34,723 nt of DNA from a virus (taxonomy: Duplodnaviria; Caudoviricetes), in IMG/VR virus record IMGVR_UViG_3300020045_015184, positions 1 to 34,723 of that record; one strand, given 5' to 3'. The position numbers and the translations under genes were made by a program. A model generated the notes under the pieces. That model made no database searches, was not told the origin of the DNA, and saw nothing but the letters and a program-made list of their open reading frames with translations. Positions 2,597-31,599 of this stretch are shown here, piece after piece. Each line of letters opens with the position of its first letter. The first letter of the stretch is position 1.

Positions 2597-2597
2597 T

Positions 2598-4660: not shown

Positions 4661-6490
4661 ATGGACATGAAAATAGATTTTACCAAAATTCAAGACTTAA
4701 AACGTAGCATTACTTTTGATAAAAATGCTGTGAATGAAGATAGCCGTACAGTTACACTCGCTTTTTCAAGTGAGATGCCTGTAGAGCGTTATTTTGGCTT
4801 AGAAATTCTTGACCATAGTGTGCAATCAGTAAGGCTTGGTCGTCTTACAGATGGCTCACCATTGTTATTGAATCATGATCCCGAAAAACAAATTGGGGTT
4901 ATTGAAAGTGTTGAAATTGGGGCAGATCGCATTGGTCGTGCGGTGGTTCGTCTGGGTAAGGGTGAACTGGCAACAGAAATTTTTAATGATATTGTTGATG
5001 GCATACGCAGCAAAGTTTCAGTTGGATATATGATTCATGGTGCTACAGAAACTAAGGAAAATGGTCAGGATGTCTATCGGGCAACTGATTGGGAGCCTTA
5101 CGAAATTAGCATTGTGTCAATTCCAGCAGATATTAGTGTTGGTGTAGGCCGATCAGCCGAATTTGAATCTCAATTAACTAAAGAAAATGAGGAAGAAAAA
5201 ATGAAAAAAGATGATACTAACGATGTTGCTGAAACACCAAAAGCTACTGTAGATACAAATGCTGTTTTAAATGAAGTACGCCAAAAAGAAGTAGAACGAA
5301 TTTCTGAAATTAACGCCCTTGGCGCTAAATTTTCTAAAATTGGCGGCACTGATTTAGCGCGCGAATTTATTGCTAAAGGCAGTTCAATTCAAGAGGCTCA
5401 ATCTGCTTTTCTTGAACGTGCTGCTTCAACTAAGCCAACCACAATTACTGATGATAAAATTGGTATGAGTGAAAGTGAAATTAAAAGCTTCTCTTTAGTG
5501 CGCTTAATTAATGTTTTAGCAAACAAAGATAGCCAAGAGGCTCGTAAAGCTGCTAGTTTTGAACTTGATGTTTGTGAAACCGCCGCTCGTAAAGCCACTA
5601 AAGAAGTTCGTGGTTTCTTAGTTCCAACCGATGTTTTATATCATGGTAAACGTGATTTAAACACAGGTACATCAACTGCTGGTGGTAACTTAGTAGCTAC
5701 CAATTTACAAGCTAGTAGCTTTATTGAATTGTTGCGTAACAAGTTAGCTTTAACACAACTTGGTGCAACAGTACTTACTGGTTTAGAGGGCAATGTTAGT
5801 GTGCCTAAACAAACTGGTGGTGCTACTGCATACTGGCTTAGTGAGGGTTCAGCACCTACTGAAACTCAACAAACAATTGGTCAGGTTCAGTTTCAACCTA
5901 AAACCGTGGGTGCGTTTACCGACTACACACGCCGTTTACTGTTACAATCTTCTGTTGATGTAGAATCAATGGTACGTAATGATTTAGCTAGAGTTTTGGC
6001 TTTGGCAATTGATTACGCTGGTTTGTATGGTACTGGTTCAAGCGGCCAGCCACAGGGTCTTAAAAACATTAGTGGTGTTTTAACAAAAGACTTTGCAGCT
6101 AATACACCAACATATGCAGAAGTAGTTGATCTTGAAACCTTGGTAGCAGCACAAAATGCTGATGTTGCTGGCATGGCCTACTTGACAAACTCAACCATGA
6201 AAGGTTCATTAAAAACTGCACCTAAAGTATCGGGTTATCCTGATTTCATTATGAACGCAGATAATAACCTAAACGGTTATCGTACAGTAATCAGCAACCA
6301 AGTCGCATCTAATGACTTGTGGTTTGGTGACTGGACTAACTTTGTGATGGCTATGTGGGGTGGTTTAGACATTATGCTTGATCCATACGCCAACAGCACA
6401 AGCGGTGGTGTTCGCATTATCGCCTTGCAAGATGTTGATTTGAACGTACGTCAAACAGTATCGTTTGTTCGTGGTAACAACACTCTTTAA
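4661..6490 (+). CDS. Fused HK97-type prohead protease and major capsid protein
   Basis: N-terminal LLLNHD, SKVSVGY, WEPYEISIVSIPAD protease motifs; C-terminal HK97-fold capsid motifs (GGNLVAT, PKTVGAFTDYTRRLLLQS, GTGSSGQPQGL, FGDW). Confidence 0.92.
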   Translation: MDMKIDFTKIQDLKRSITFDKNAVNEDSRTVTLAFSSEMPVERYFGLEILDHSVQSVRLGRLTDGSPLLLNHDPEKQIGVIESVEIGADRIGRAVVRLGKGELATEIFNDIVDGIRSKVSVGYMIHGATETKENGQDVYRATDWEPYEISIVSIPADISVGVGRSAEFESQLTKENEEEKMKKDDTNDVAETPKATVDTNAVLNEVRQKEVERISEINALGAKFSKIGGTDLAREFIAKGSSIQEAQSAFLERAASTKPTTITDDKIGMSESEIKSFSLVRLINVLANKDSQEARKAASFELDVCETAARKATKEVRGFLVPTDVLYHGKRDLNTGTSTAGGNLVATNLQASSFIELLRNKLALTQLGATVLTGLEGNVSVPKQTGGATAYWLSEGSAPTETQQTIGQVQFQPKTVGAFTDYTRRLLLQSSVDVESMVRNDLARVLALAIDYAGLYGTGSSGQPQGLKNISGVLTKDFAANTPTYAEVVDLETLVAAQNADVAGMAYLTNSTMKGSLKTAPKVSGYPDFIMNADNNLNGYRTVISNQVASNDLWFGDWTNFVMAMWGGLDIMLDPYANSTSGGVRIIALQDVDLNVRQTVSFVRGNNTL

Positions 6491-6497
6491 GTAACTT

Positions 6498-6527
6498 AAT
6501 TGGGCCCACAATAATGTGGGCCCAATT
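6498..6527 (+). terminator. Perfect 13-bp hairpin after the capsid gene (attenuator or mRNA stabiliser)
   Basis: aattgggcccaca-ataa-tgtgggcccaatt; no real U-tract. Confidence 0.7.
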
Positions 6528-6544
6528 CAATGAAAGGTACTACC

Positions 6545-6958
6545 ATGACAATTAAAAAAATTATAATGACGGTGCAATGCGTTGTTAATGGCAAAAGCCG
6601 TAAGATTGGTGAAATTATTGATGTTGATTTATCAGAGCGTAATTCATTAGTTGGTAATAAATTAGCCAATGATTATCAAGCACCACCTAAGCCACCTACT
6701 AAAGCAGAACTGGCCGCTGCCGAAGCTGCCGCTAAAGAAGCCGAAGAACTAGCTGCTGCCGAAACTGTTGCTAAAGAAGCCGAAGAACTGGCTGCTAAAG
6801 AAGCTGCCGATAAAGAAGCAGAAGAACTAGCTAACGCCGCTAAAGCTGATGAAAAAAATGGTGAAACAAAAGAAAATGCTAATTCTTCTGAAACAAAAGA
6901 AAATGCTAATTCTGCTGAAACACCTAAACCTCTTGAAATAACCAAAACTAAAAAATAG
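6545..6958 (+). CDS. Hypothetical capsid-adjacent protein with Ala/Glu/Lys helical repeats
   Basis: GAAAGG RBS before ATG 6545; AKEAEELA x2 plus DKEAEELA, and ETKENANS x2. Confidence 0.7.
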   Translation: MTIKKIIMTVQCVVNGKSRKIGEIIDVDLSERNSLVGNKLANDYQAPPKPPTKAELAAAEAAAKEAEELAAAETVAKEAEELAAKEAADKEAEELANAAKADEKNGETKENANSSETKENANSAETPKPLEITKTKK

Positions 6959-6974
6959 AAGTGGAAAATTAAAA

Positions 6975-7358
6975 ATGGCGTTACCTTATAATATTGGCGA
7001 TGTAATTGATCGTTTAGTTTTAAAAGCTGTATCAGCAATTACAACAACAACTAACGGCACTGGCCTTGATTTAAATGATTATGAGGGCCAAGTAGCTTTC
7101 TATCTTGAATCATCTGCTGGTACTGGTACAAGCCCTACTTTGGATGTTAAAATCCAAGATAGTGATGATAACACAACATTTGCTGATGTATCAAGCGCTG
7201 CTTTTACACAAGTTACAGGCGCTGCTAGCGTTCAAAAACTTGTTTTAAATAGCAATAATGTTAAGCGTTATGTGCGTTGTGTATCAACCTTAACTGGTAC
7301 AACCCCATCATTTATTACGTCAGTTTATGGCATGGGTGTTAAGAAAAACTACGCTTAA
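6975..7358 (+). CDS. Probable head decoration or virion structural protein
   Basis: Thr/Ser/Gly-rich beta-type protein (LDVKIQDSDD..TFADV, KRYVR) downstream of the capsid gene. Confidence 0.6.
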   Translation: MALPYNIGDVIDRLVLKAVSAITTTTNGTGLDLNDYEGQVAFYLESSAGTGTSPTLDVKIQDSDDNTTFADVSSAAFTQVTGAASVQKLVLNSNNVKRYVRCVSTLTGTTPSFITSVYGMGVKKNYA

Positions 7359-7639
7359 TGGCTTTTGAAGAAGATTTAACCATATTTTTTGCCGATTTTG
7401 GCGTTATTGCAACATATAACGGAGAATCGGCAAAAGTTATTTTTGATATGCCTGATATTATCAATAGTATTGGTGATAATATGATTAGTGCTGATTATAC
7501 AGTTTTATTTAATACGCAAAACTTTACTGGAATTAAGTATGCTGATCAAATAACAGTAAATGGTGTAAACTATACTGTGAATGATGTACTTAAAGTAGGT
7601 GATGGTAATTTTTCACAGCTGGGGTTATCAAAGGTATGA
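7358..7639 (+). CDS. Head-tail joining protein (gpFII-like)
   Basis: FFADFGV.A..NG..VIFD motif, size and position. Confidence 0.65.
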   Translation: MAFEEDLTIFFADFGVIATYNGESAKVIFDMPDIINSIGDNMISADYTVLFNTQNFTGIKYADQITVNGVNYTVNDVLKVGDGNFSQLGLSKV

Positions 7640-8061
7640 CAGATACACGCAGAGAGCTTATTTTATCGGCTATTACAATAACAGTTGGTGCAATAAGTGC
7701 ACTCACTGGTAAAGTTTATCGTAGTCGCCCAGATGCCTTTGCAAGGCTTGAAACACCTGTAGTTAATATAAAGCCTTTGCGCGATACATCAAATGCAACA
7801 AATATTCCATTTTTAAACTGGACGCTACAAGTGGCGATTACTTTAATGGTGCGCGGTGCGGTGCCCGATACTATAGCTGATCCATATGTAGCTAGTATAA
7901 CAGCTGCCTTAATGGCAGATAGAACCCTTGGTGGCCTTTGTTTTGATATTTTGCCAGTAGATACATATTTTGAGATGCAAGAGGGTGATAAGCCAATGTG
8001 TGCGGTTAATATGATTTTTGAAGTAACTTATAGAACTCAAGTAGGGGATTTAACAACATGA
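7636..8061 (+). CDS. Tail terminator (gpU-like)
   Basis: RRELIL.AI, VYRSR, D.TLGGL, YRT motifs; upstream of the tail tube gene. Confidence 0.7.
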   Translation: MTDTRRELILSAITITVGAISALTGKVYRSRPDAFARLETPVVNIKPLRDTSNATNIPFLNWTLQVAITLMVRGAVPDTIADPYVASITAALMADRTLGGLCFDILPVDTYFEMQEGDKPMCAVNMIFEVTYRTQVGDLTT

Positions 8062-8276
8062 CAATTATTATTGATGAATATCACGGCGTTGGTGGAACAT
8101 ATATTATTGACAAAAAAACAGGCAAAAGAGTGCCTGTCATAGAAAATAACGATCCAGTACCACAAAATCGTGATCCAATACCACAAAACAATGCTATTGC
8201 AGAAATAGCAGAAAAAACCTATATTAAAGAAGATAAAAAACCTAAGGGAGGGTTAGAAGATGCCGAAGCTAATTAG
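8058..8276 (+). CDS. Small hypothetical protein
   Basis: ATGA-coupled ORF; GVGGTYIIDKKTGKRV. Confidence 0.6.
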   Translation: MTIIIDEYHGVGGTYIIDKKTGKRVPVIENNDPVPQNRDPIPQNNAIAEIAEKTYIKEDKKPKGGLEDAEAN

Positions 8277-9192
8277 AAAAAGTGTTATTTTAGCAAAAAT
8301 TGAATCTACAGCTGGCACCGATCCAACACCTACAGGTAGTTCTAACGCTATTTTAGTACGCAACCTTAGTATTACACCACTTGCTGGTAATACTGTAAGC
8401 CGTGATTTGGTACGCCCATATTTAGGTGAGTTTGATCAAATTTTTGCCGAAAAACACGTGGAAATTGAATTTGAAGTTGAATATGCGGCTTCTGGTACTG
8501 CTGGTACAGCACCAGCATATGGCCCATTGCTTAAAGCATGTGCAATGTCAGAAACTATTTCAGCTGGTGTAAGTGTTACATATGCCCCTGTATCAACAGG
8601 CTTTAGTTCTGTAACTATTTACATGAATGTTGATGGTTTGTTACACAAAATTACATATGCTCGCGGTACAGTTGATATTGAACTTACTGCTAATCAAATA
8701 CCAGTTTTCAAATTTAAATTTATTGGTGTTTATAATGCTGTTACTGATACAGCGGCCCCAACACCAACATACACAGGCTTTCAAACACCATTTATTGTTG
8801 ATAACACAAACACCACTGGTTTTTCATTTTTTAGTGTAACAAGTTTGGTGCTTGAATCATTGATGGTATCAATTGGCAACCAAGTTGAATATAGATCATT
8901 GATTGGTTCAACAAGTACAGAAATTGTAGATCGCCGTACAAGCGGTGAGGTGGTTTTTGAGATGCCCCCAGTTTCTACCCTTGATATATTTGGCTCGGCC
9001 ATTGCTAACACAACAGGTGCTATTTCTATTGCCCACGGTGTAGGTGCTGGTAAAATTCTTACCTTGGCTAGCACTAAGGTTGATATTGGCCAACCAAGCT
9101 ATCAAGATAGCCAAGGTATTCAAATGGTAAGAACACCGTTTGTTATGTTGCCAACTAGTGGCAATGATGAATGGTCACTTGTTTTAACTTAA
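8260..9192 (+). CDS. Major tail tube protein
   Basis: ILAKIES..GTDPTP, GTAGTAPAYGPLLKAC, GNDE motifs; GGGAGG RBS; followed by tail chaperones. Confidence 0.85.
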   Translation: MPKLIRKSVILAKIESTAGTDPTPTGSSNAILVRNLSITPLAGNTVSRDLVRPYLGEFDQIFAEKHVEIEFEVEYAASGTAGTAPAYGPLLKACAMSETISAGVSVTYAPVSTGFSSVTIYMNVDGLLHKITYARGTVDIELTANQIPVFKFKFIGVYNAVTDTAAPTPTYTGFQTPFIVDNTNTTGFSFFSVTSLVLESLMVSIGNQVEYRSLIGSTSTEIVDRRTSGEVVFEMPPVSTLDIFGSAIANTTGAISIAHGVGAGKILTLASTKVDIGQPSYQDSQGIQMVRTPFVMLPTSGNDEWSLVLT

Positions 9193-9215
9193 ACTAACCC
9201 TAACTGGAGATAAAA

Positions 9216-9560
9216 ATGGCGTTTGTCGTATCAAAACCAGCCACATATGAGTGGCCTGTAACTATTGAATCACCTGTGGATGGTGGCGTTTATAAAAAAG
9301 AAACATTTAATGCTGTTTTTAATCGCCTAAGCCAAACACGTTTGCAAGAAATTAGCAAAGAGCTAATTGATCAAAAAATGACAGATATAGATGTTGCACG
9401 TGAAGCACTTGTTGGCTGGAATGGTATTTTAGATGATGATAAAAACCCTGTAGAATATAATCCAGTGCTTGCTAACCAGTTGCTTGATATTGCTGGTTTT
9501 GCAAGCGCTGTGGCCCAGTCTTTCTTTGATAGCGTTACAGGTATTAAAAGAAAAAACTAG
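9216..9560 (+). CDS. Tail assembly chaperone (gpG-like)
   Basis: Position between tube and tape measure; LVGWNGI motif; ends on the slippery heptamer AAAAAAC. Confidence 0.8.
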   Translation: MAFVVSKPATYEWPVTIESPVDGGVYKKETFNAVFNRLSQTRLQEISKELIDQKMTDIDVAREALVGWNGILDDDKNPVEYNPVLANQLLDIAGFASAVAQSFFDSVTGIKRKN

Positions 9561-9889
9561 ATGCCGCTGGCCACTATTGGGCCACAGGCGGCATAATAGA
9601 TAAAACAGCAGATGATTTTAAAGTGTTTGGCATTGAAAATGTAGAAATTGCCAAAGAAGAAAATTTTGTTGTTTATCCTGAAAATGAAAAAGCAGTTGAA
9701 CTATTTTTAAAATGTAGCACCCAATGGCGCTGTGCGCCAATGGGTGGCTTTACTGGCCTTGATTATAACGTCTTGTTTATTTTATTTGATTGGTATAAGA
9801 TAGAGCCTGATAATCGGCTTGATTTATTAACAGATATTCAGGTTATAGAGTCGGGCGCACTTAATGAATTAGCAAAGGCAGCTGGCTAA
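9557..9889 (+). CDS. -1 frameshift extension of the tail chaperone (gpT/DUF1799-like)
   Basis: Open -1 frame LDAAGHYWATGG...STQWR..GLDY..IQVIESGAL. Confidence 0.8.
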   Translation, partial: LDAAGHYWATGGIIDKTADDFKVFGIENVEIAKEENFVVYPENEKAVELFLKCSTQWRCAPMGGFTGLDYNVLFILFDWYKIEPDNRLDLLTDIQVIESGALNELAKAAG

Positions 9890-9891
9890 AC

Positions 9892-11916
9892 ATGGCAACT
9901 ATTTCCACTATTTATAAATTGGTTGCAAGCGTTAGTGGCACAAATAGCGTTAGAACACTAAAAAATGAAGTTGATAAAGTTTCAACAAGTGGCCAAAAGT
10001 TAGCACGAACATTTAACAGTGTTGGTTTGGCATTACGTAGTGGTGCATATCTTTATGCTGCCACAAAAATTGTAAATATTTCTGATAAATATACGATCCT
10101 TGAAGCTCGTGTTAAAGGCATTGGTAAAACGGCATCTGAAACAGCACGTTTAATGAAAGATCTACAAGATATTTCATTTCAAACTGGTACTAAAATGGAA
10201 GCCAGTGTTAGCATTTTACAACGTATTAGTTTTGTTAGGGATGAAATTAAAGCTACTAACACACAAATGTTAGGTTTTGTAGAAACTGTTAGTAAATTGG
10301 GTGTAATGTCTGGTGCTTCGCCAGATGCTATGCGATTTGGTTTGACGCAGTTAGGGCAATCTTTAAGTGCCCAAGTAATGCGAGCCGAAGAATTTAACAG
10401 TATCATGGAAAACATCCCTGCGGTGGGTAATGCTATTGCTAAAGAATTTGGTATTACTACTGGGCAGTTGCGCCTACTTGTTTTAGAGGGCCAAGTTTTA
10501 TCAAAAGATGTTTTTAAAGCTATTTTAAATCAAACACAAGAAGTCAATAAAGAATTTAAACAGATGCCACGTACCGTTGGTATGGCTTTATCTGGGGCAG
10601 CAACAAGTGCTGGTTTATTACTTAGTACGCTTACTGGCCAAACAGGTGCAACTGGTGGGATTGTAGCAATTATTGATAAAGTTAATGAGGGTTTAAGAGA
10701 AACAAAAAATATTTTTATAGATCTTACAAAGCTAGCTAACAAATTAAGTAGTGAATTTAACCGTCTTTATCCAGAAAGAAAAAAATCTAGTTTTGATCCA
10801 TTTTCTGCTGATTTAAAAGAACTCTATAATGCATTTACCCGCAAGCCAGATAAAATGACTGCTGCGCCATCAACTTTCATGCTCGGTGGCGCGCCTAAAA
10901 ATATGAGTACAGCCAATGCTACACCTGTACCACAGGGGGCATTTAAAACTAAAATTGAAACAGATTACGTGAAACTGGCAGCTGATCTAGCAGCTAAGGG
11001 CGCAAAAGTCAAAAAAACCCCAGAAGAAAAAGCTGCTGAAACTGCTGCCAAACAAGCAGCACGTAAGATAGCTGATACAAATGAAGATCTACAGAAAAAA
11101 ATATCTACACTTAATGCTGATACAGCTGCCATACGTTTAAATAATGACGCTAAAGAAAAATCAGTTACACTGGCTGAATTTGAAGCGCGTGGCATATCAA
11201 AAGCCAGCAATGAATATAAAAAGTTGTCAGAAGCTATTGATGAAAATAACCGCGCCCATAAATCATTTGAAGCTGGTGCTTTTGAAGCCATTAATAGCTA
11301 CATGGATGGTATTAATAATATGGCGGCCAGCACCAGCAATGTGCTTACAAGCGCCTTTAAAGGTATGGAAGATGCCCTTGTTGAATTTGTGGCTACTGGC
11401 AAGCTAAAGTTTGCTGATTTTGCAAATTCTATTGTGCGTGATCTTATTCGTATGCAAGTACAACAAAGCATTACAGGGCCACTAGTTTCATTGCTTGGTA
11501 GTTTTATGAGTAGTGGGTTTCAAGCAGCACAATTTAGCGTTAAATCTGCTATGGCAGCGCCAAACCTTTATGGCCCAGGCTTTGCTAACGGTGGTATCAT
11601 GACGGATCGTGGTGAGTTGCCACTTAACAAATATGCTAACGGTGGTATAGCTAACAGCCCACAAATGGCTATGTTTGGTGAGGGTAGAAACCCAGAAGCC
11701 TATGTGCCTTTGCCCGATGGCCGTTCTATACCTGTAACCATGAAAGGTAACGGTGGTGGCCAGCAAAACAATGTTAGCGTTGTTGTTAATATGAGTGGTG
11801 GCGATCAAATTACTGGTGATGGTGATAAGGCTAAAGCCTTGGGTAACAGCATTGCCTCACAAGTTAAATCAATTTTAATAAATGAAAAAAGACCAGGGGG
11901 ATTATTAGCAGCATGA
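9892..11916 (+). CDS. Tape measure protein
   Basis: QLGQSLS..RAEEFNSIMEN tape-measure motif; lambda-type C-terminus FVATGKLKFADFANSI and INEKRPGGLL. Confidence 0.92.
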   Translation: MATISTIYKLVASVSGTNSVRTLKNEVDKVSTSGQKLARTFNSVGLALRSGAYLYAATKIVNISDKYTILEARVKGIGKTASETARLMKDLQDISFQTGTKMEASVSILQRISFVRDEIKATNTQMLGFVETVSKLGVMSGASPDAMRFGLTQLGQSLSAQVMRAEEFNSIMENIPAVGNAIAKEFGITTGQLRLLVLEGQVLSKDVFKAILNQTQEVNKEFKQMPRTVGMALSGAATSAGLLLSTLTGQTGATGGIVAIIDKVNEGLRETKNIFIDLTKLANKLSSEFNRLYPERKKSSFDPFSADLKELYNAFTRKPDKMTAAPSTFMLGGAPKNMSTANATPVPQGAFKTKIETDYVKLAADLAAKGAKVKKTPEEKAAETAAKQAARKIADTNEDLQKKISTLNADTAAIRLNNDAKEKSVTLAEFEARGISKASNEYKKLSEAIDENNRAHKSFEAGAFEAINSYMDGINNMAASTSNVLTSAFKGMEDALVEFVATGKLKFADFANSIVRDLIRMQVQQSITGPLVSLLGSFMSSGFQAAQFSVKSAMAAPNLYGPGFANGGIMTDRGELPLNKYANGGIANSPQMAMFGEGRNPEAYVPLPDGRSIPVTMKGNGGGQQNNVSVVVNMSGGDQITGDGDKAKALGNSIASQVKSILINEKRPGGLLAA

Positions 11917-12254
11917 CCACGCCAGTTTTCACTTGGGCCCTAAGTTATTCCCCACAAGCACAACGTAAACCACGTAGGAAGAAAATATCTTTTGGTGATG
12001 GCTACAGCCAAAGATCACAAGATGGTATTAACAGTAAACCAGAAATTTGGAACGTATCATTTTTAAACCGTGATACAACCGAGGGCTATGCCATTGATGC
12101 GTTCTTAACTGCGCGCGGTGGTGTAGAAAAATTTGAATGGACAACACCAACAGGTGTAACAGCAAATTTTATTTGTGAAGAACATGACCTTGTGTTATCG
12201 GTTGGCAACAATGTTACAATAACAGGTGTATTTGAACAGGTATTTGAAGTATGA
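11913..12254 (+). CDS. Minor tail protein M (distal tail)
   Basis: FGDGYSQR..DGIN, FL.ARGG.E.FEWT, FEQVFE. Confidence 0.9.
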   Translation: MTTPVFTWALSYSPQAQRKPRRKKISFGDGYSQRSQDGINSKPEIWNVSFLNRDTTEGYAIDAFLTARGGVEKFEWTTPTGVTANFICEEHDLVLSVGNNVTITGVFEQVFEV

Positions 12255-17932: not shown

Positions 17933-17957
17933 TATTAAATAAAATAAGGGGTAAAAC

Positions 17958-19555: not shown

Positions 19556-19890
19556 TGGGCCAGTATAACCCAACAGGGCAGCAGGGAGCTACATTTACAC
19601 GCTTAATAACGTGGACTGATAATGCTGGCGATGCGGTTAATATAACAGGCTACACCGCGCGTATGATGTTAAAGCGCGATTATAGTGATCCAGTTTCAGT
19701 ATTAAGCCTGACAAGTTCTGCTGGCCTTACGCTCGGTGGTGCGGCTGGTACAATTTTAATTACCATGACAGCGGCCCAAACAGCAGATCTTAATGGTGCA
19801 TATCTTTATGATCTTGAATTGGTAAATGGCTCGGTGGTTACACGTTTGCTTGAGGGCACAATCACTTTTACCCCAGAGGTAACAAAATGA
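19555..19890 (+). CDS. Virion adaptor / BppU-like protein
   Basis: QGATF...W, ITGYTARM, YLYDLEL, RLLEG..PEVT; GTG start. Confidence 0.65.
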   Translation: MGQYNPTGQQGATFTRLITWTDNAGDAVNITGYTARMMLKRDYSDPVSVLSLTSSAGLTLGGAAGTILITMTAAQTADLNGAYLYDLELVNGSVVTRLLEGTITFTPEVTK

Positions 19891-23590: not shown

Positions 23591-23855
23591 ATTTTTGTTT
23601 AAGCTTTTCTTTAAAAATATCTATAATGTCAGTAGCCACATTTATTTTATCACCTGTACCATATTTCAACCTATGATCTTGTAACAACTCTAGCACTTCG
23701 CTAAGGGCAACCATTGGCTCGGTGGTTACTTTTATATATTTAATTGTTACTGGTAAATAATCATCTTTTTCTGCAATATTTATAGCAGTTTTATGAAAGT
23801 GAATATACAAAGATTCTGGTGGGTTTTCAGCGTTATATTTTATAATATCACTCAT
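23568..23855 (-). CDS. Hypothetical protein
   Basis: Overlap-coupled ORF. Confidence 0.6.
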   Translation of the reverse strand: MSDIIKYNAENPPESLYIHFHKTAINIAEKDDYLPVTIKYIKVTTEPMVALSEVLELLQDHRLKYGTGDKINVATDIIDIFKEKLKQKYGAINDK

Positions 23856-24375
23856 TCCCCACCACCTTTTCTGCGTTTGCTATGGCTTGTTTTGCTTTAT
23901 CGTAAAATTGTTTCCACGGCCCTGAATTATAGCCGCTAAACTCCCATGTTATTGCTTTGGGGCCATATCTATATCGGCGGCCCTCAAGTTCATCTGTTGC
24001 TTGGGTATGGCTAAAAAATGGCCCACACAATAAAACTTGGCCAATTACACCGATTTTGCTTTCTCTAACTATTCCCCACCACGGCTCTGATGAAAAATTA
24101 TTATCGCCTAAGTGTGCAAACGGCATTTTAAGCAATTCCAACAATTCGGCATGGCTTTGCTTAACCCGCTCTAGCTCTGCTAACTTGGCCTTAATGCGCT
24201 CAAGAATATCTATAGTTTCCTCATGTTGTTGAGGGCTCATGTATTCGTCTTGATACATATCTATATTGTGTTTGTCGATTTCAAAATCAAGAAACTCGTT
24301 TTCTACCCTTGCATTGTAAGCGGCTATATCAGCATCAACGTCAATCTCATCAGGCATATTGTGTTTATCGGTCAT
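23848..24375 (-). CDS. Hypothetical mosaic protein
   Basis: ATGA coupling; SHAELLE.LK...AKQAIANAE framing. Confidence 0.65.
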   Translation of the reverse strand: MTDKHNMPDEIDVDADIAAYNARVENEFLDFEIDKHNIDMYQDEYMSPQQHEETIDILERIKAKLAELERVKQSHAELLELLKMPFAHLGDNNFSSEPWWGIVRESKIGVIGQVLLCGPFFSHTQATDELEGRRYRYGPKAITWEFSGYNSGPWKQFYDKAKQAIANAEKVVGNE

Positions 24376-24761
24376 TTGTTTTGATCCTTAATGTATTTTA
24401 AAACTTCTAAAAGTTGATGTAGATAAGCCAATGTTAATGTTGGTGCATGAATACCGCTTGTAGAAAAAACTTCACGCCCAATTGAGCCTATCGCACATCC
24501 ATCAGTAATGCCTATTTTATGCATTTGGCAATAAGATTCACCAACACTTGATTCATGTAAATCAACGGCCCAACCATCTGGCTTAAACCTCATTATTTCA
24601 TCCATGCTTGTAGCATAGTTTGTTGGGTATAGATATTCACTATCCCCGACTACTTCATTAAATATAATATGGCACAAATTATTTAATCTTTTTTCTGTAG
24701 CCTTATTAGTAAAATTTAAATCACTAATTATTTTTAAAGCTTTTTCTATATGATTAATCAT
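24372..24761 (-). CDS. Hypothetical protein
   Basis: AAGGAG RBS; PTNYATSMD motif. Confidence 0.6.
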   Translation of the reverse strand: MINHIEKALKIISDLNFTNKATEKRLNNLCHIIFNEVVGDSEYLYPTNYATSMDEIMRFKPDGWAVDLHESSVGESYCQMHKIGITDGCAIGSIGREVFSTSGIHAPTLTLAYLHQLLEVLKYIKDQNK

Positions 24762-24808
24762 TTTATTTGCTCCTTAACTAATACAGTCAGTTTAGTTTCT
24801 TGTGTCAT

Positions 24809-24970
24809 TTAATCATCTCCATATCTTATGCTATCTATGAGGCTAACAGCTTCTTGAAGTGTTTCGTAAGCTAAAATGTGATTGTTTGTACGCATATTGC
24901 CGACAGTTTTATGAATAAGCCGCCCCAACTCCTCTATGTCTTTATTCTCGCTTAGTTTTTCTTGGGTCAT
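24809..24970 (-). CDS. Unannotated 53-aa hypothetical protein (MTQEKLSENK...RYGDD)
   Basis: AAGGA RBS; open frame filling the gap. Confidence 0.6.
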   Translation of the reverse strand: MTQEKLSENKDIEELGRLIHKTVGNMRTNNHILAYETLQEAVSLIDSIRYGDD

Positions 24971-24973
24971 AAT

Positions 24974-25222
24974 CTAATCCTTTTTCGGTGGTTGTGGGTG
25001 TATGTCATATAGCTTCATATTGCAATCATCTATTATGGCCTTGTGTGCCCATGCTGCACTAACCAGCGCATACTCACCTGATGCTATTTTTTCGGCTAAT
25101 TCTAAGCCATACATTAAAGTTTGTGCTTCTTCATTCCATGCAACATGGACTTTCCAAGGTTCATAAATCCATTTCAACCTTTTTTTAGCCGCCTTTATTT
25201 TATCAAGTGTTGTATGTTTCAT
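24974..25222 (-). CDS. Hypothetical protein
   Basis: ATGA-coupled ORF. Confidence 0.6.
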   Translation of the reverse strand: MKHTTLDKIKAAKKRLKWIYEPWKVHVAWNEEAQTLMYGLELAEKIASGEYALVSAAWAHKAIIDDCNMKLYDIHPQPPKKD

Positions 25223-25581
25223 TTTAACAAATCCTGCAAATCGGTAGTTATTATTGAATAAAGATTTTGGCTAACAAAAACTTCACCCCCTGCCTCACAT
25301 GATTCCTTACATATTGATATTAGAGCTTCAACATCGTACCTTGTACGTCTTCTAACATCAAAAGCACTGTGAAAAATTGAACCCTCTTTGTATTCATACC
25401 ATTCCAAAACATCCTTTGGCGTTTTAAGTTTTTTAAAAAAATTAAAAAGTTTACGTGTGCCAAGATGTTTTGCTATAACCTCTTGTTTATGTTTTTCGTT
25501 ATAAGCTATGCGTTTTTTATCCCACAACTCACACATATCAAGTAATCTTTTAGAATCTATCTTTAAATAGCCATGTATCAT
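25219..25581 (-). CDS. Hypothetical protein
   Basis: Tightly packed ORF with AGGGG RBS. Confidence 0.6.
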   Translation of the reverse strand: MIHGYLKIDSKRLLDMCELWDKKRIAYNEKHKQEVIAKHLGTRKLFNFFKKLKTPKDVLEWYEYKEGSIFHSAFDVRRRTRYDVEALISICKESCEAGGEVFVSQNLYSIITTDLQDLLK

Positions 25582-25582
25582 A

Positions 25583-25909
25583 TTATTTCCCCTGATTTCT
25601 ATAAGCTAGCGCCATTGCAAGCGAGCTTTCATAAACATTACTGCTTGGTTTAAAGCCTTGATCATCATAACGTGTTTCATCTCTTTCATTATGCTGCAAT
25701 GATAAAAAACCAGCGCATACTTTTGAATTTTTACCAGCATAGGTATCGCCATTATCATCGTCATGCTCTAAAGTTTTGTGACAATGAAACGTGCTGTATT
25801 TACTTTGGCAGATATAAGCCAGTTCTGCGCCACGCTGCGGGTGTAAAAACGGCTTAACATCTTGCCTATAGGGGCAGTTAGCGCATGGCTTTTTGCAAAA
25901 GTCGCTCAT
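25583..25909 (-). CDS. Cys/His metal-binding phage protein
   Basis: KPCANCPYR, FHCHK, CAG motifs. Confidence 0.7.
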   Translation of the reverse strand: MSDFCKKPCANCPYRQDVKPFLHPQRGAELAYICQSKYSTFHCHKTLEHDDDNGDTYAGKNSKVCAGFLSLQHNERDETRYDDQGFKPSSNVYESSLAMALAYRNQGK

Positions 25910-26221
25910 TTATACCCCCGCCTTAGCAGCAGATATAATAGCTTCTACAATTCTTAATAAGTATAACTCTTGTGGCTTTGTGCGTTTTTTGTTTGCCTCG
26001 TTTTGTAAGCGGTCTAATAAATATGATGCGTTTAGCCCTGCTATAAAAGATAGCATATTACTACCCATAGATGAAAAGTAAGTAGTCCACGATGATCCAT
26101 AGCAAGTAACTGTTAAATAGCCAGCACTACCACTTTCATCTAAATAAACATTTATAGGGTCTAGTCTTTCAGCACCTGTTATTTGTAGTCGGGTAACTTG
26201 TTCTATAAGCAATTTAGTCAT
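25910..26221 (-). CDS. Conserved phage hypothetical protein
   Basis: LDPINV.L...G.LTVTCYG.SW..YF..MG pattern; AAGGA RBS. Confidence 0.7.
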   Translation of the reverse strand: MTKLLIEQVTRLQITGAERLDPINVYLDESGSAGYLTVTCYGSSWTTYFSSMGSNMLSFIAGLNASYLLDRLQNEANKKRTKPQELYLLRIVEAIISAAKAGV

Positions 26222-26249
26222 AATATAAAATCCTTTAAACGGTGGTAAA

Positions 26250-26273
26250 ATAGCCCCACCTAAGCAGGGCTAT
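26250..26273 (-). terminator. Rho-independent terminator candidate after the SPFH gene
   Basis: atagccc/gggctat stem followed by a short U-run on the minus strand. Confidence 0.55.
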
Positions 26274-26280
26274 GGTTAAT

Positions 26281-27066
26281 TTACTTATCTTCTAAAATAC
26301 CAGCGGGGATATTCAGCATATTAGCGCCATTACCACCTATGATCTTAGGCAATACGCCATTCCATTTTTGTACGGCCTCATAAGCCACCAATGACTGGCT
26401 TTTGCTTAACGCTTCGGTTTTAATCTGCATAGCTTCGGCATCGGCCTTAGCAGCAATAATCCGCTGCTTGGCGTTTTCTTCAATCTCTACAGTCTTGTTA
26501 CGCGCTTCTTCGGCACGTTGCACAGCAACAACCTTAGCTTCAACAGCATTTTCAAACTGTGTGGCAAAGGCTACATCGGTTAATTCAACCTGTGTAACGA
26601 TTAAACCAGCCTTACCCAAGCTACCAGCAATGCTATCTTGGATTTCGGTGGTGGCCTTTTGTCTGTTAGCAATTAGATCAATAGCGTTCCATTTGCCAAT
26701 AACATTTTTAAGGGCCCCATTAACAACCTGTGGGATCAGCTTGTCTTCATATGGAATACCAACCTCACTAAACATTTTAACGGTGTATTTGGGGTCTAGG
26801 TTATAGTTAATAGCCAATGCAATGTTTGCCTGTTGAACATCGCGTGTGTACACGCTAGTTTTACCGTCAAAACGCTGTGTTTGGTTATCAATTTCATAGA
26901 TGGTGGTAATAAATGGGTTATAGGTATAAAACCCTGCTGGTAAAGATTCTGGCTCAACCTTACCCATAGTCTTTTTAACACCACTACTACCAGTTTCAAC
27001 AATTTCAAAGCCACAAGCCGTTAAGCTTAAGGCAGATAACATCAGTACAAATAACATTTTTTTCAT
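26281..27066 (-). CDS. SPFH/band-7/prohibitin family lipoprotein
   Basis: Lipobox LTAC; FENAVEAKVVAVQRA coiled coil; KWNGVLP. Confidence 0.9.
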   Translation of the reverse strand: MKKMLFVLMLSALSLTACGFEIVETGSSGVKKTMGKVEPESLPAGFYTYNPFITTIYEIDNQTQRFDGKTSVYTRDVQQANIALAINYNLDPKYTVKMFSEVGIPYEDKLIPQVVNGALKNVIGKWNAIDLIANRQKATTEIQDSIAGSLGKAGLIVTQVELTDVAFATQFENAVEAKVVAVQRAEEARNKTVEIEENAKQRIIAAKADAEAMQIKTEALSKSQSLVAYEAVQKWNGVLPKIIGGNGANMLNIPAGILEDK

Positions 27067-27077
27067 TTTTGTCGCTC

Positions 27078-27281
27078 CTAAAGTTTTTTGATTTTAGATA
27101 ACAAGACCATGCGGCCCTGCTTTGATAATACAGCCAAAGGCCATATGGGCATAAATGCTAAGGCTTTCCACATAGCATTAAATTGTTTTTTGCTTGGCTG
27201 AAAAGCCCAGCTTGATACAGCATTGCTCATAAAAATGAACATACCAAAAAAGTATATGCGCCAGATAATAACAATAATCAT
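27078..27281 (-). CDS. Small membrane protein
   Basis: Two hydrophobic segments; IWPL motif. Confidence 0.6.
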   Translation of the reverse strand: MIIVIIWRIYFFGMFIFMSNAVSSWAFQPSKKQFNAMWKALAFMPIWPLAVLSKQGRMVLLSKIKKL

Positions 27282-27485
27282 TACTCACCATCACTTTCTT
27301 TTTTAGTAATAAAAATGCTAACACGTGATTCTTTTTGTTCTGACCATATATGATATACGAAAAACAAAATAATTAATTGAGATATATTTTCCCAACCTTT
27401 AAGTTCAAGTGCAACAATTATAAATACAACAATGTATAAAATTCTAATTATTGTATTTAGAATAAATTCTAAACGATCACGCATA
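27281..27485 (-). CDS. Small membrane protein
   Basis: Two TM segments; likely starts at MRDRLE just after the gapR stop (start coordinate approximate). Confidence 0.55.
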
Positions 27486-27731
27486 TTACACCATACCAAT
27501 CGCTGATTTATATAGCTCAAGCAATTCTTCTTGTTCGCGGCGCTGATCGGTGGCTAACTTACGTAAGCGCACAACAGCACGAATAATCTTAGGATCAAAC
27601 CCTGCTGATTTTGATTCGCCGTAAACCTCTTTAATATCATCTTGAATACCAGTTTTTTCTTCTGTTAAACGCTCAATGCGCTCAATTAGCAATTTAAGTC
27701 TATCGCCAGCTACGCCCTGTACATCTGCCAT
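27486..27731 (-). CDS. gapR: GapR / DUF2312 nucleoid-associated DNA-binding protein
   Basis: LK..IERIERL.EEK..I.DDIKEVY.E.KS.GFD.KI.R.VVRLRK signature; AAGGAG RBS. Confidence 0.92.
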   Translation of the reverse strand: MADVQGVAGDRLKLLIERIERLTEEKTGIQDDIKEVYGESKSAGFDPKIIRAVVRLRKLATDQRREQEELLELYKSAIGMV

Positions 27732-27757
27732 TTTTCTATACTCCTTTTATTCGGTGG

Positions 27758-28042
27758 TTATTTTTTTGGTTCAAGTTTTTCAGCAATATCAATCAATACA
27801 TCTATTGCCTTATACAATAATCTATTAGTTTGCATTGATGTAAGTTCATCTCTTATATCAACATCTTTTGATAAAAATGTATTTGTCATTGTAACTGCTT
27901 CACTAAAATTTGCCAAAACAGTTTTTCTTGTAATATTTGGGTCATTATCATTTATTGTTAAAAGAATAATGCTACCTCCAATTGTATATAAATCTTGCAA
28001 TTGTTGATTAATAGCTTGCTTAACATCTTCTGTAATTTCCAT
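27758..28042 (-). CDS. Hypothetical protein, first gene of the leftward operon
   Basis: AAGGA RBS; follows the divergent promoter. Confidence 0.65.
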   Translation of the reverse strand: MEITEDVKQAINQQLQDLYTIGGSIILLTINDNDPNITRKTVLANFSEAVTMTNTFLSKDVDIRDELTSMQTNRLLYKAIDVLIDIAEKLEPKK

Positions 28043-28087
28043 GATTTTAAAATCCTTTTTGTTGTTAATTTATCTCGTGATTTCCAC

Positions 28088-28127
28088 TTGACTATTATAA
28101 TATAATATAATATAATAGCGTTGTCAA
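28088..28127. promoter_or_regulatory. Overlapping divergent sigma70 promoters around (TATAA)4
   Basis: + strand TTGACT(28088)-17-TATAAT(28111); - strand TTGACA(28127)-17-TATATT(28104). Confidence 0.8.
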
Positions 28128-28152
28128 TAACAAAAAATAGGAGTTTTTAAAA

Positions 28153-28326
28153 ATGACAAGAAATAAATCTGACGCATATAGCCCACGCAAGGTTGTGCTT
28201 TCTGTAACTGTAGATCCTGACGTATGGGAAACCGCTAAAGATCGTGCCGTTGAAGAAAATAAATCATTAAGTTCTGTAGTTGAAAAATTATTAAAGGCCT
28301 ATGGCAATGCCAGTAAGAAGAAATAA
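28153..28326 (+). CDS. Unannotated 57-aa ribbon-helix-helix transcription regulator
   Basis: AGGAG RBS; RKVVLSVTVDPDVWETAKDRAVEENKSLSSVVEKLLKAY fits the strand-helix-helix RHH pattern. Confidence 0.8.
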   Translation: MTRNKSDAYSPRKVVLSVTVDPDVWETAKDRAVEENKSLSSVVEKLLKAYGNASKKK

Positions 28327-28669
28327 GTTTGGTACGGCTCTAAAGGAGCACCGCACATTAAATGGCACTGTGTTTGATAGCAAAGGTGAAATGTTAAGAT
28401 ATTACGATTTAGAGTTGTTACAGCGCGGTAAGGTGATTCGCAATTTAGAGCGCCAAGTAAGCTACCCGCTGGTAATTGTTAATCCTGATACCCAGCAGCA
28501 CATAAATGTGGGTCAGTACACGCCCGACTTTGTTTATGAGGAGCTACAGCCTGACGGCACATGGGAACTAATCGTAGAAGACTTCAAGGGCCTGATGACG
28601 AACGAATCAAAGTTTAGGATTAAGGTATTTCAAGCCATTTACAACAAAACCGTAAAAATAACCAAATAA
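28301..28669 (+). CDS. DUF1064 family PD-(D/E)XK nuclease-like protein
   Basis: NKFG, FDSKGE..Y, LERQV, YTPDFVY, VEDFKG. Confidence 0.85.
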   Translation: MAMPVRRNKFGTALKEHRTLNGTVFDSKGEMLRYYDLELLQRGKVIRNLERQVSYPLVIVNPDTQQHINVGQYTPDFVYEELQPDGTWELIVEDFKGLMTNESKFRIKVFQAIYNKTVKITK

Positions 28670-28687
28670 CCCACAATAGGATCAAAA

Positions 28688-29398
28688 ATGAACATTTTAA
28701 CTTGGTACCCGCACGATTTGGGTCGTTATTCCCGTGATACTCGGCACCTAACAATGCTAGAACATGGCGCATTTAGGCTACTTTTAGACTGTTATTATGC
28801 CACTGGCGGCTTGCCAGAAGCAATGCCTAAGCAATGCTCAAGCAATGCTCTACCAATGCTAGACCATTCACGTATCTATAGGGTGTGCTGTGCCATGTCA
28901 AAGCACGAACAAGATGCGGTGGATGCCGTTTTAAAGATGTTTTTTACCCTAAATAATGACGGTTTTTACACCAATTCTAAGGCAGATAAGGTCATTTTAG
29001 AGCAAACAACCAAGCACGAAAACCGCGTAAAAGCTGGTAAAATGAGCAATTCTAAAGCAATGCTAGAGCAATGCTCAAGCAATACCCCACAGAAAGAGAA
29101 TAAGAAAAAGAATAAAAACCCCCCTACCCCCCTAAAGGGAGGGTCTGGTGTTTTGACTTCGTCTTTGGGGGATGGGGGAGTTACCCCTATTGATCGTGCG
29201 GTATTAAACCAAGCGCTAGACAAAATGGATGCTAGGCAGCTAGAGGCTTTCAGAAAAGCAGCACCAGGTTGGGATAAGTTTCACCTAAGGGGTTTATGGC
29301 TTGAGTGGTTAGATAACCCAGAACGTGGCATGCCCAATGCGCCTGTGTCGTCTTTCATAGCGTGGTGTTTAAAATATACTAAGGGTAAGCGGCCATAA
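28688..29398 (+). CDS. DUF1376/YdaU-type replication initiator
   Basis: WYP...Y..DT.HLT.LEHGAF.LLLD.YY; internal iterons; NPPTPLKG linker. Confidence 0.85.
   Translation: MNILTWYPHDLGRYSRDTRHLTMLEHGAFRLLLDCYYATGGLPEAMPKQCSSNALPMLDHSRIYRVCCAMSKHEQDAVDAVLKMFFTLNNDGFYTNSKADKVILEQTTKHENRVKAGKMSNSKAMLEQCSSNTPQKENKKKNKNPPTPLKGGSGVLTSSLGDGGVTPIDRAVLNQALDKMDARQLEAFRKAAPGWDKFHLRGLWLEWLDNPERGMPNAPVSSFIAWCLKYTKGKRP
28818..29087 (+). repeat. Two clusters of 11-bp iterons (consensus AAGCAATGCTM), putative origin
   Basis: Four tandem units at 28818-28861 and four at 29044-29087. Confidence 0.8.
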
Positions 29399-29793
29399 TT
29401 GAACAAGCCAAAATAAAGCCCCGTGAGTGGCCTGTTTATATTTTTGGCTATAGGCGTAGCAAAATAGGTCGTTTGTTTAAGCTGTTGCCACCGCCAGCGA
29501 TTTTTTGACTAGGTTTAACGGTGGTGGCTAACCCTAATATCATTAAAACACTATTTAAACGGTGGTTTTTGTTAATAAAGGTTAATAAACAGATAAAATA
29601 AACCTATTTCTAGCGGTGGTTTTTCATGTTACGATTAACCACGCACCCGATCCAATAGTTGCGCCGCCCGACTAAGTATACCAAGTTGCTATCGTGATGT
29701 GTGCGTGTGGGTCATGATAAATCGTGTAATAGCAACACGGCGGCATTTTTTATTTAGCTATTGCGTAATAAACTAAAATATAATAAACTAACT

Positions 29794-29905
29794 TTGCTAT
29801 CTTCATGAACGTGCCCCACCCGCAAGAGTGGGGATCTGCCAAAGGTAACTCGGTGGTCGGCCATAGCAATTAAGGGGTAGTTCTGACAGTGACTACCCCT
29901 TTTTT
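29794..29905 (+). ncRNA. Candidate structured small RNA
   Basis: TTGCGT-17-TAAACT promoter (29761-29789); ttgctat/atagcaa closing stem; ccccac/gtgggg hairpin with a GCAA-containing loop; followed by a terminator. Confidence 0.5.
29872..29905 (+). terminator. Rho-independent terminator
   Basis: aaggggtagt/actacccctt stem followed by a T-tract. Confidence 0.8.
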
Positions 29906-29941
29906 ATTTTATTACTGGTTTTACGGTGGTTATTAAATCAG

Positions 29942-30043
29942 CTACAGGCCGCTTAGAAAGTACTTCTTTGCGAATTTCCATACCGCACGATACAGAATTA
30001 CCAATATAAACAGCAAGGCGGCGTCTGTCGCGTTCGCGTTCAT
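29942..30043 (-). CDS. Unannotated 33-aa single-TM peptide (MNANATDAALLFILVILYRAVWKFAKKYFLSGL)
   Basis: GAGGTG RBS; TGATG coupling to the HNH-like gene stop. Confidence 0.6.
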   Translation of the reverse strand: MNANATDAALLFILVILYRAVWKFAKKYFLSGL

Positions 30044-30528
30044 CACACCTCTCTGTAGGATAGCTTGGGTGTAACAGGCTGTTTAGTCGGTCTATTGCAT
30101 ATTTCAATACCACTCTCCATGTAATCAATATAAGCTGTTTTTAATTCATCTGGGGCAGTTTCCCACGCTGTGTAATGGAAACTATCAATTTCACGAGAAT
30201 AATAGTTATCGTTCTTAAAATCGTATAGGTTATTTATTAAATCCGTGTGCCCATAGCGCTCTAATTTATGGTAGCGCACGTGGTGATCATGGCAAAGAGG
30301 CATTACCTTTAAGGTTTCTGCAAATATTAGTGATAACGGCGCTTGAAAAAAGACCATATTACTTAACGTATCACATTTTGTGCTGCGTTCTAAATGGTGA
30401 AATTCAATAAACGTAGCTGTAGGCTGTAGTATATTACAAGCTGGGCACTGGCAGCTATTTTTTAGGTTACGGTACCAAGCCTTAATTACAAAAGGATCAT
30501 ATGTACAAATTGGGTAGTTTTTCTGCAT
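30043..30528 (-). CDS. HNH-like Zn-binding nuclease-fold protein
   Basis: CPAC, IEFHH, K...SNMV, LCHDHHVRYH; start at MQKNYP after GGGGG. Confidence 0.65.
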   Translation of the reverse strand: MQKNYPICTYDPFVIKAWYRNLKNSCQCPACNILQPTATFIEFHHLERSTKCDTLSNMVFFQAPLSLIFAETLKVMPLCHDHHVRYHKLERYGHTDLINNLYDFKNDNYYSREIDSFHYTAWETAPDELKTAYIDYMESGIEICNRPTKQPVTPKLSYREV

Positions 30529-30673
30529 AAAGCCCCCAAAAAATGGTGGGCAAAACATAGGAGTGTTAACCAGCGCCTCGCCTGTTTTGCCCATAAAATG
30601 GTGCAAGGGTTTTGAGAATTGTGTTTAGTAAGCCTCGCAACCCCAGCACCAAAAACTTATTTGATTCGGTGGA

Positions 30674-31384
30674 TTAAAACAAGCTACCTTGTCTATAGGC
30701 AAATTCAACACGGCGGCAAGCCACATCAAAATATTGTTTATCTATTTCAATGCCAATGCCTTTGCGCCCTGTCTTAGCGCAAGCTACCAATGTTGTGCCA
30801 CTACCCATAAAGGGATCTATAACCAACCCACCTTTATCGGTGGATTGTTCTATCCAGCAAGCCATTAGCTCAACAGGCTTTTCGGTGGGGTGCTCATTGC
30901 CTTTGCTATTTGGTGCCTTAAATAAGTTAGATAAAGACATATCATTAATATATCTTGCCCTACCTTTATAGCCGAATAACCCAAATTCAACACCAAGCAT
31001 ATAAAACCTATTGGGGGTAACAGTACATTTATCCCACACTAAAATATTATGAAACCCAAAACCAGATTTTCTAAACCATCTTAAGGCTTTTTCAAGGTTG
31101 CGGTTATTACTCATAATATAAGCATTGCCATTATCTTTTAGGGCTTCATAACACATGTTATTAATTTGTTTCCACGTAATGTTACATTCAACGATTTTAC
31201 CATCGTTGTTATAATTATGCTTTGACAGGCACCCACCAAGTTCGCTGGTATTATTACCACCACTTGTTAATGGGTACGGTGGATCAGTTACTACACAATC
31301 AACCTTTTCAAGCATGGGCATGATTTGTAGGCTATCACCTAAATACAAGGTGCAATCGCCTATAACTTCTTTTCGGTGATACAT
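30674..31384 (-). CDS. DNA N6-adenine/N4-cytosine methyltransferase (beta class), apparently orphan
   Basis: LYLGD, TDPPY, HPTEKP, DPFMGSGTT, GIEID. Confidence 0.93.
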   Translation of the reverse strand: MYHRKEVIGDCTLYLGDSLQIMPMLEKVDCVVTDPPYPLTSGGNNTSELGGCLSKHNYNNDGKIVECNITWKQINNMCYEALKDNGNAYIMSNNRNLEKALRWFRKSGFGFHNILVWDKCTVTPNRFYMLGVEFGLFGYKGRARYINDMSLSNLFKAPNSKGNEHPTEKPVELMACWIEQSTDKGGLVIDPFMGSGTTLVACAKTGRKGIGIEIDKQYFDVACRRVEFAYRQGSLF

Positions 31385-31599
31385 TATTTAGCCTTAATTG
31401 AATTAAACAGCCGCCGTAATACATAGGAACGCACTAAAGAAACAATTGTAAATAAAAAACCTATCATAGCGTGTTGGCTGGCGCTAACATGAATATCAAA
31501 TAAAGGAAATATTATGTTTTGTGCTAGCAAAGCTATAAAATAACCAATAATTACATTAACCACTGATTCGGTGGCTGACATTTTACGTGATTGGCTCAT
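31384..31599 (-). CDS. Small two-TM protein commonly adjacent to phage MTases
   Basis: QSRKMS..ES..NV..G...FT..S..RSY.LRRLFN. Confidence 0.75.
   Translation of the reverse strand: MSQSRKMSATESVVNVIIGYFIALLAQNIIFPLFDIHVSASQHAMIGFLFTIVSLVRSYVLRRLFNSIKAK

Follow-up and report, generated by a model that had tools for sequence, protein, structure and literature searches.

Why would a phage write the same six bases again and again on one DNA strand and hardly ever on the other? This question is raised by the virus record IMGVR_UViG_3300020045_015184 (Duplodnaviria; Caudoviricetes), which was analysed over its whole length of 34,723 bp (38% G+C; the window). The hexamer CGGTGG occurs 52 times on the + strand, with the first copy at position 4256 and the last at 31569, and once on the − strand. 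For the heptamer CGGTGGT the ratio is 33:0 and for the octamer GCGGTGGT it is 12:0. A first-pass annotation had estimated about 30 heptamers on the + strand, a single CCACCG at 29488 and clearly unequal strands, all of which the counts bear out; its eleven octamer positions are correct as well, and one further octamer at 18089 had been overlooked. We think that the word is probably the Chi signal of the AddAB helicase-nuclease of a host that is itself probably alphaproteobacterial.

The excess of CGGTGG goes beyond codon usage and base composition. When synonymous codons were shuffled within each gene (500 runs), the genes on the + strand reached 8.2±2.5 copies and never more than 16, whereas 35 are present; the shuffled − strand genes held at most 5 (Table 1). 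As restriction-like words are purged from this genome, the shuffling was repeated with those words forbidden as well (200 runs), and the genes still hold 43 copies against 9.0±2.5 (maximum 17), a 4.8-fold enrichment. Between genes nine copies stand against 0.17 expected (about 50-fold). CGGTGG ranks first among all 4096 hexamers and is written at 43 of the 131 coding positions that permit it (33%). None of the 58 positions open to its complement is used, and ten control hexamers fill 2-17% of their opportunities. A codon-aware count per strand had been proposed from the outset, and the enrichment survives it. The depletion of the opposite orientation in genes is not significant (0 vs 2.1±1.4 in the restriction-aware shuffle). 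None of the single-base neighbours of CGGTGG shows a comparable strand pattern, and CGGTG followed by A, C or T gives 14:9. The word GAGGG(T), considered as a second signal, was rejected, as its 28 copies against 27.2 in the restriction-aware shuffle are explained by avoidance of GAAGG.

Genes on the + strand contain 35 of the 52 copies and genes on the − strand 8, the remaining 9 lying between genes. The frame offsets are distributed 20/12/3 in + strand genes and 6/2 in − strand genes, and 20 of the 52 copies are read as x-Gly-Gly. If the − strand genes and the intergenic DNA are pooled, the polarity is 17:1 (p=1.4e-4). Because the copies occupy three frames, occur in − strand genes and occur between genes, the polarity tracks the genome strand and not transcription. 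That the orientation is kept in − strand genes and intergenic DNA, and that Gly-Gly codons are insufficient as a cause, had both been claimed before; every position named in support was found.

The selected unit is CGGTGG with a preference for a following T. Enrichment is 5.8-fold when A or T precedes the hexamer and 3.8-fold when G does, and C never precedes it because CCGG is purged genome-wide. With T as the following base enrichment is 6.1-fold, with the others 3.6-fold, and T follows seven of the nine intergenic copies (p=0.006). The full octamer GCGGTGGT is not the unit that is selected, as it makes up 12 of the 52 copies and the G-preceded form is less enriched than the A/T-preceded one. 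The link to Chi of Caulobacter made by the first-pass annotation therefore stands in part: the word is nested in an octamer that attenuates AddAB, and the octamer itself is not what this phage accumulates. KOPS, the FtsK-orienting motif, which we take to be GGGNAGGG, was rejected as the identity of the word, since it occurs 1:1 in the genome.

The field had also been called genome-wide, starting at 4940. The copies are indeed dispersed from 4256 to 31574, and none is found in 1-4255 or in 31575-34723; on a circular map this gap measures 7410 bp (P=0.0002). Coding opportunities are used differently along the genome (Table 1; the zone borders were set after viewing the data), and the spacing of the copies is clumped, not even (coefficient of variation 1.21). 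To the right of the likely origin lie the five-copy cluster and five more copies up to 31569, and most copies lie to the left. The same polarity persists across the likely origin, unlike the two-replichore pattern of a chromosome.

Table 1. Position of the CGGTGG copies and of the genes discussed, in coordinates of the window
Feature	Position	Strand	Remarks
Co-oriented CGGTGG field	4256-31574	+	52 hexamers, 33 followed by T, 12 being GCGGTGGT; about 1 per 525 bp
Sole opposite-strand CGGTGG	29488-29493	−	intergenic, adjoins the five-copy cluster
Eight copies within − strand genes (23720, 24986, 26646, 27548, 30838, 30883, 31277, 31569)	23720-31574	+	8 vs 1.3±1.1 in within-gene shuffles
Intergenic cluster of five CGGTGGT	29519-29930	+	just right of the replication gene
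Sparse left part	1-9889	+	4 of 34 coding opportunities used
Dense zone	9892-31574	+	39 of 92 coding opportunities used (counted over 9892-31599); Fisher p=0.0013 vs 1-9889
Motif-free right end	31575-34723		AT-rich; 0 of 8 coding opportunities with the reading frame 6-614 included, p=0.02
Tail-completion reading frame, 3'-truncated	6-614	+	abuts the small-terminase-like remnant
Small-terminase-like 3' remnant	574-672	+	weak 14-residue match, E=0.002 pairwise
Large terminase, lambda gpA-type (PF05876, PF20454)	641-2596	+	no motif copy; sets packaging left to right
GapR-like gene	27486-27731	−	one + strand copy inside (27548); chief clue to a probably alphaproteobacterial host
DUF1376 replication-initiator-like gene	28688-29398	+	seven repeats of 11-bp period at 28808-29094
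N6/N4 DNA methyltransferase	30674-31384	−	three + strand copies inside

The phage is lambda-like, the contig is 91% complete and the record is linear; no terminal overlap was found in the contig. The genes for the terminase, the lambda portal, a fused protease-capsid, tail proteins L/K/I/J and lysis are on the + strand and are followed by a − strand operon with SPFH and GapR genes, by a DUF1064 gene and the DUF1376 gene on the + strand, and by a converging − strand operon with the methyltransferase and MazG. The repeats within the DUF1376 gene are likely origin iterons, as in lambda O, and a peptide repeat matching them recurs in homologues. The terminase families, portal and tail genes mark a packaging machinery of the lambda type, which needs concatemers. 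From the truncated tail-completion frame, the small-terminase-like remnant and the gene order of the related prophage L146 (initiator-like gene, another open reading frame (ORF), tail completion, gap, small terminase, large terminase) we infer that about 0.8 kb with cos and most of the small terminase gene is missing near 575, by misassembly or real deletion, and the virion map would run left to right as in the sequence given. With cos placed by this gene order, 52 of the 53 hexamers lie on the terminase-sense strand, which is the orientation active for an enzyme that enters at the right cos end. Among the 56 ORFs we recognised no recombinase, exonuclease, Gam, Abc2 or integrase (PHROGs and Pfam; 30 of them also in NCBIfam), and PF03837 gave no match in six frames. 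The earlier statement that no Gam/Red system is visible holds only for a 91% complete contig without its cos region.

How would a Chi signal serve such a phage? In lambda, terminase keeps hold of the left cos end and the right end is free. Here, too, terminase would cut cos and begin packaging from the left, leaving the right end exposed. AddAB would enter this end, and perhaps also ends from broken rightward forks or restriction cuts, and move leftward. It would then meet CGGTGG(T) on the + strand from the 3' side and cease to degrade both strands, and RecA-dependent recombination with a sister genome could yield a concatemer, the substrate for cos packaging. Copies at the far left would matter least. 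The elements of this scheme have precedents: arrays of GCGGTGGT are reported to slow Caulobacter AddAB in one orientation only and in a RecA-dependent manner, with about 0.23 recognition per site (PMC5443536), Chi is described as acting when the enzyme arrives from its right and only in the proper orientation to lambda packaging (bioRxiv 10.1101/2021.07.08.451572), and lambdoid phages without recombinases are reported to over-represent Chi with a median observed/expected ratio of 3.12, mostly near the origin (PMC3784561). Many copies may be favoured because a single site is recognised only about one in four times in Caulobacter. The Chi reading would, with fair probability, account for the strand, the sequence, the origin-side cluster, the thinning at the far left and the copy number. 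The first-pass annotation had proposed both mimicry of host self-DNA and recruitment of host recombination; recruitment for concatemer formation fits the lambdoid and P1 cases better, and self-mimicry is the weaker part.

On present evidence CGGTGG behaves like Chi, as a candidate Chi distinct from the Caulobacter octamer. Several observations on the phage, its relatives and possible hosts weigh against this assignment, and they are given here together with what speaks for it in the same data. Within the phage, the last 3.1 kb are free of copies, where an entering enzyme would first need a site, and the preceding G of the Caulobacter octamer is not favoured. Roughly 9% of the genome is absent from the contig, and a large number of small ORFs have no assignment, which limits the negative result for recombinases. 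The empty right end, the absence from relatives and an octamer-only bias in two bacterial genomes (G600 and G630, see below) are left unexplained.

A comparison with related phages had been suggested as a check, and the related loci do not share the enrichment. The nearest proteins have 91% (terminase) and 81% (initiator) identity. Scans with the terminase, tail-tip and initiator yielded 349 loci whose identity is roughly 27-73%; 234 loci are at least 8 kb long. Dispersed enrichment of CGGTGG was found in none of the 349. The best log-likelihood was 5.8 among the first 269 loci, compared with 57.5 in this phage; the 80 initiator loci reached 11, in L368, whose copies belong to a glycine-rich ORF. 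A capsid scan found no match, an initiator alignment against 401 genomes gave 0 matches, and no sequencing run is listed for positions 10001-19900. Five virus records counted over their whole length had no excess of this order (5:0, 18:16, 12:21, 33:22 and 22:5), and a paired-motif scan of viral contigs, covering at least 120 loci (about 190 estimated; flanks for 80), found none enriched throughout. Owing to this absence, the Chi reading needs a host change in this lineage. Low G+C and heavy purging of sites set this phage apart from most of its relatives.

Named phages of alphaproteobacterial hosts (13 records, six of them over the first 50 kb only) give weak and mixed support. PV211009.1, labelled roseophage CRP-701, has 20:1 in terminase-sense orientation, with 19 copies in genes against 6.4±2.0. 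On the other side, CGG words are generally in excess in this genome (rank 19/4096, order-3 expectation 13.4), 26 loci related to it give 159 vs 145, and it encodes its own exonuclease and annealing protein. P106B (21:0) and CRP-811 (8:0) have an empty other strand without a gain, and RcOceanus has CGGTG 0:40, that is, the word is missing from the terminase-sense strand. Nine of the 13 records show no bias, among them the RecT-bearing Caulobacter phage Sansa (27:22). The patterns of P106B and RcOceanus resemble an escape from restriction on one strand, centred on CGGTG; as they concern a wider CGGTG family in opposite orientations, they were dropped as support for Chi and counted under restriction.

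Some further properties of these records were seen. The sizes of PV211009.1 and PV211008.1 (L634 and L639) are swapped relative to the table for CRP-701 and CRP-406 in PMC12629253. The Rhizobium phage P106B (L632, KF977490.1, first 50 kb) has GCGGTG at 39:0 and CCGGTG at 47:1 in genes of both directions, and an excess of TCCAGG on both strands. In the Rhodobacter phage RcOceanus (L629, MW677520.1) 35 hexamers are empty on one strand only, and so are the pentamers GGCCC (0:85), CGGTG (0:40) and GACAG (0:32); this is an extensive strand-biased site avoidance. Other words are one-sided elsewhere: ACCAGG is dispersed at 21:0 through 12.9 kb of a DUF1376-bearing phage (L319:1390-12742), and CCGAGG (11:0, L165:6894-17491) and GAGGAA (15:0, L112) are, by raw counts, dispersed in two terminase-bearing loci.

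Chromosomes of possible hosts provide suggestive, mixed evidence. G623, from the order of an Oceanicaulis metagenome-assembled genome (MAG), has CGGTGG at 134:56 toward the leading strand over 780 kb, CGGTGGT at 36:7 and the octamer at 23:1. Among 3684 hexamers CGGTGG comes second by z and first by fraction. The bias occurs in genes of both directions, with 52 vs 26 on coding strands and 38 vs 12 on template strands (580 kb). This genome was picked after its octamer polarity had been seen, CGGTGG is under-represented in it (190 vs 288), and its forms without G give 47:26 (p=0.02 against one half, p=0.16 against composition). G600/G630, which belong to the same order as the Oceanicaulis MAG, show a bias over 400 kb for the octamer alone (38:18), with [ATC]CGGTGG at 176:174. 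No CGGTGG skew was found in G390, in G300 or in ten genomes sampled at 60-140 kb, where power is low. In G715 CGGTGGT is found at 64:28 when oriented by GGGNAGGG (p=0.07 against a compositional skew of 60%); this tally was made by hand from match positions and covers 92 of 94 sites, two being left out for lack of orientation. Counting CGGTGGT against its reversed sequence as a control, over 401 genomes at the class level and 301 at the order level, turned out to be a poor detector. The genome with the top ratio, G390, was rejected as enriched (90 vs 76 on 379 kb, rank 1283/4096), and so was G300. The tallies include the unpublished genomes G245, G045 and G450, on which no single claim rests. 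The skew in candidate hosts that had been proposed as a check is clear in G623, picked post hoc, limited to the octamer in G600/G630, not beyond composition in G715 and absent from G390, G300 and the ten short samples.

The host is probably alphaproteobacterial. GapR matches in named phages come mostly from alphaproteobacterial hosts, and of 401 genomes from the class that includes G001, 301 have a GapR match. Metagenome-assembled genomes harbour the closest prophage terminases and are labelled Alphaproteobacteria or Proteobacteria. G001, G713 and G715, which bear related prophage terminases, encode alphaproteobacterial AddB (6/6 genomes tested were positive). Weighing against the Chi reading, GANTC is not purged from the phage, at 0.80 of expectation, whereas it is below 0.5 in 7 of 10 named alphaproteobacterial phage records; loci of Rickettsiales-labelled genomes have 0.73-0.85. 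Rickettsiales are not known to possess CcrM, and unpurged GANTC agrees with either a host that lacks CcrM or one that does not belong to the Alphaproteobacteria.

A different explanation, which we consider unlikely, is a directional signal private to the phage that is read by a strand-tracking phage or host protein during replication, packaging or ejection, with the likeness to the octamer due to chance. Its strength is that the word is confined to this lineage among the 349 related loci and the at least 120 loci of the pattern scan, that the motif-free zone extends to either side of the inferred cos, and that G before the word is not preferred. However, we recognised neither a primase or helicase nor another tracking enzyme among the 56 ORFs, and the spacing is clumped. 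Chance alone would match one of the octamer's three hexamers, in the orientation that is active, with a probability of about 3/4096 per word, though many phages were examined. If such a signal is at work, it would be a one-strand phage signal without a known reader.

Less probable again, and in our view rather improbable, is a directional target of restriction or methylation, either Type III-like or of the phage's own N6/N4 methyltransferase, of which a single orientation is kept to escape cleavage while many sites are beneficial. In favour of this, many restriction-like words are purged from the genome: on both strands CCGG occurs 0 times against 86.5 expected, TCGA 4 against 47.7, GAAGG 0 against 30.8 and CTCAG 0 against 16.5. 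CCATGG, GATATC, GGCGCC, GAATTC, AACGTT, TGCGCA and CTGAAG are likewise at 0 copies, GCAGGT is at 0 on both strands against 10.1, and CCWGG is at 0.23 of expectation. Such a purge suggests that many restriction systems are present in the host population, and it may be of use in matching the host. PADLOC recovered the methyltransferase plus one weak match only. Phage T7 is reported to keep its 36 EcoP15 sites in one orientation (PMC3874151), and words overlapping CGGTG are empty on one strand in P106B and, in the opposite sense, in RcOceanus. Escape by strand bias, however, predicts loss on one strand, as in T7, whereas the main signal here is the gain on one strand and the loss is not significant. 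Because CGGTG followed by A, C or T is at 14:9, the core of P106B and RcOceanus is not what is selected here.

An element linked to transcription or codons (Gly-Gly pairs, a pause or ops-like antitermination) or a by-product of restriction avoidance is largely refuted already and very improbable: the x-Gly-Gly copies and the GAGGG case, which proves that by-products occur in this genome, speak for it, but the three frames, the nine intergenic copies, the survival in the restriction-aware shuffle, the lower opportunity use of control hexamers and the eight copies against and none with the direction of − strand genes do not fit.

Chi-rich phages are already known for RecBCD hosts. The recombinase-less lambdoid phages of E. 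coli and Salmonella resemble this phage in lambda-type packaging, in the lack of a detected recombinase or inhibitor and in the over-representation of a Chi-like host word with a cluster near the origin (PMC3784561). Their Chi, GCTGGTGG, is read by RecBCD and lies at about 0.2 per kb (median observed/expected 3.1) between origin and cos. The hexamer here, by contrast, extends at 1.5 per kb through the early genes as well as those for the tail, has no copy in the last 3.1 kb and is likely read by AddAB. The main text of PMC3784561 contains neither the term orientation nor a statement on Chi strand polarity that we could find. For four lambda-like phages most Chi sites are reported in the lambda-active orientation (bioRxiv 10.1101/2021.07.08.451572, whose supplementary tables may list more cases). 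P1 is, according to the same source, likewise a phage with Chi far above host density, but its 50 sites in 94.8 kb are on both strands (31 on top), are densest near the ends and belong to a circularising headful genome, whereas the phage described here has 52:1 in 34.7 kb and empty ends. The putative Chi of Caulobacter crescentus, GCGGTGGT, contains the phage word and shares the final T; slowing of AddAB is reported for the octamer only (PMC5443536), of which the first G is not preferred here. The asymmetric EcoP15 site of T7 is similar in being present many times on one strand (PMC3874151).

Only few bacteria have a known Chi sequence, and a survey covering the Proteobacteria reports no confident Chi motif outside the relatives of E. 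coli and that experiments may be needed (PMC8022716). A phage selected to use the Chi of its host amplifies a signal that is faint on chromosomes. In the literature searched, consisting of main texts with most subscription journals outside its scope, we found neither a Chi-loaded phage described for an AddAB-bearing alphaproteobacterium nor CGGTGG described as a Chi core. If the Chi reading is right, exploitation of Chi would extend from RecBCD to AddAB hosts, and this phage would be the most one-sided among the published cases compared (52:1 vs 31:19 in P1). The need for the first G of the octamer could then be tested cheaply by comparing TCGGTGGT, ACGGTGGT and TCGGTGGA with GCGGTGGT. We advance only tentatively, as somewhat less likely than the opposite, that CGGTGG(T), shorter than the octamer, is the working core of AddAB Chi in part of the Alphaproteobacteria, and that this phage has placed it in one direction along most of its genome instead of any recombination or anti-AddAB gene; the Chi of uncultured hosts could then be read from such phages, even though it is hardly in excess on the hosts' own chromosomes.

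Other features of the genome were noted in passing. One ORF without assignment gave viral clusters and winged-helix leads only in an Atlas search. Overlapping divergent sigma-70-like promoters (11/12 matches each) lie between the two early operons at 28088-28326, and are followed by a 57-aa ORF (28153-28326) that by eye resembles a ribbon-helix-helix regulator. Four copies of the unit TTAACTCCTTG follow one another every 24-25 bp (34353-34443), and the unit occurs also at the gene starts 33615, 33880 and 34344; on the − strand of this region (33615-34443) it resembles a ribosome-binding site.

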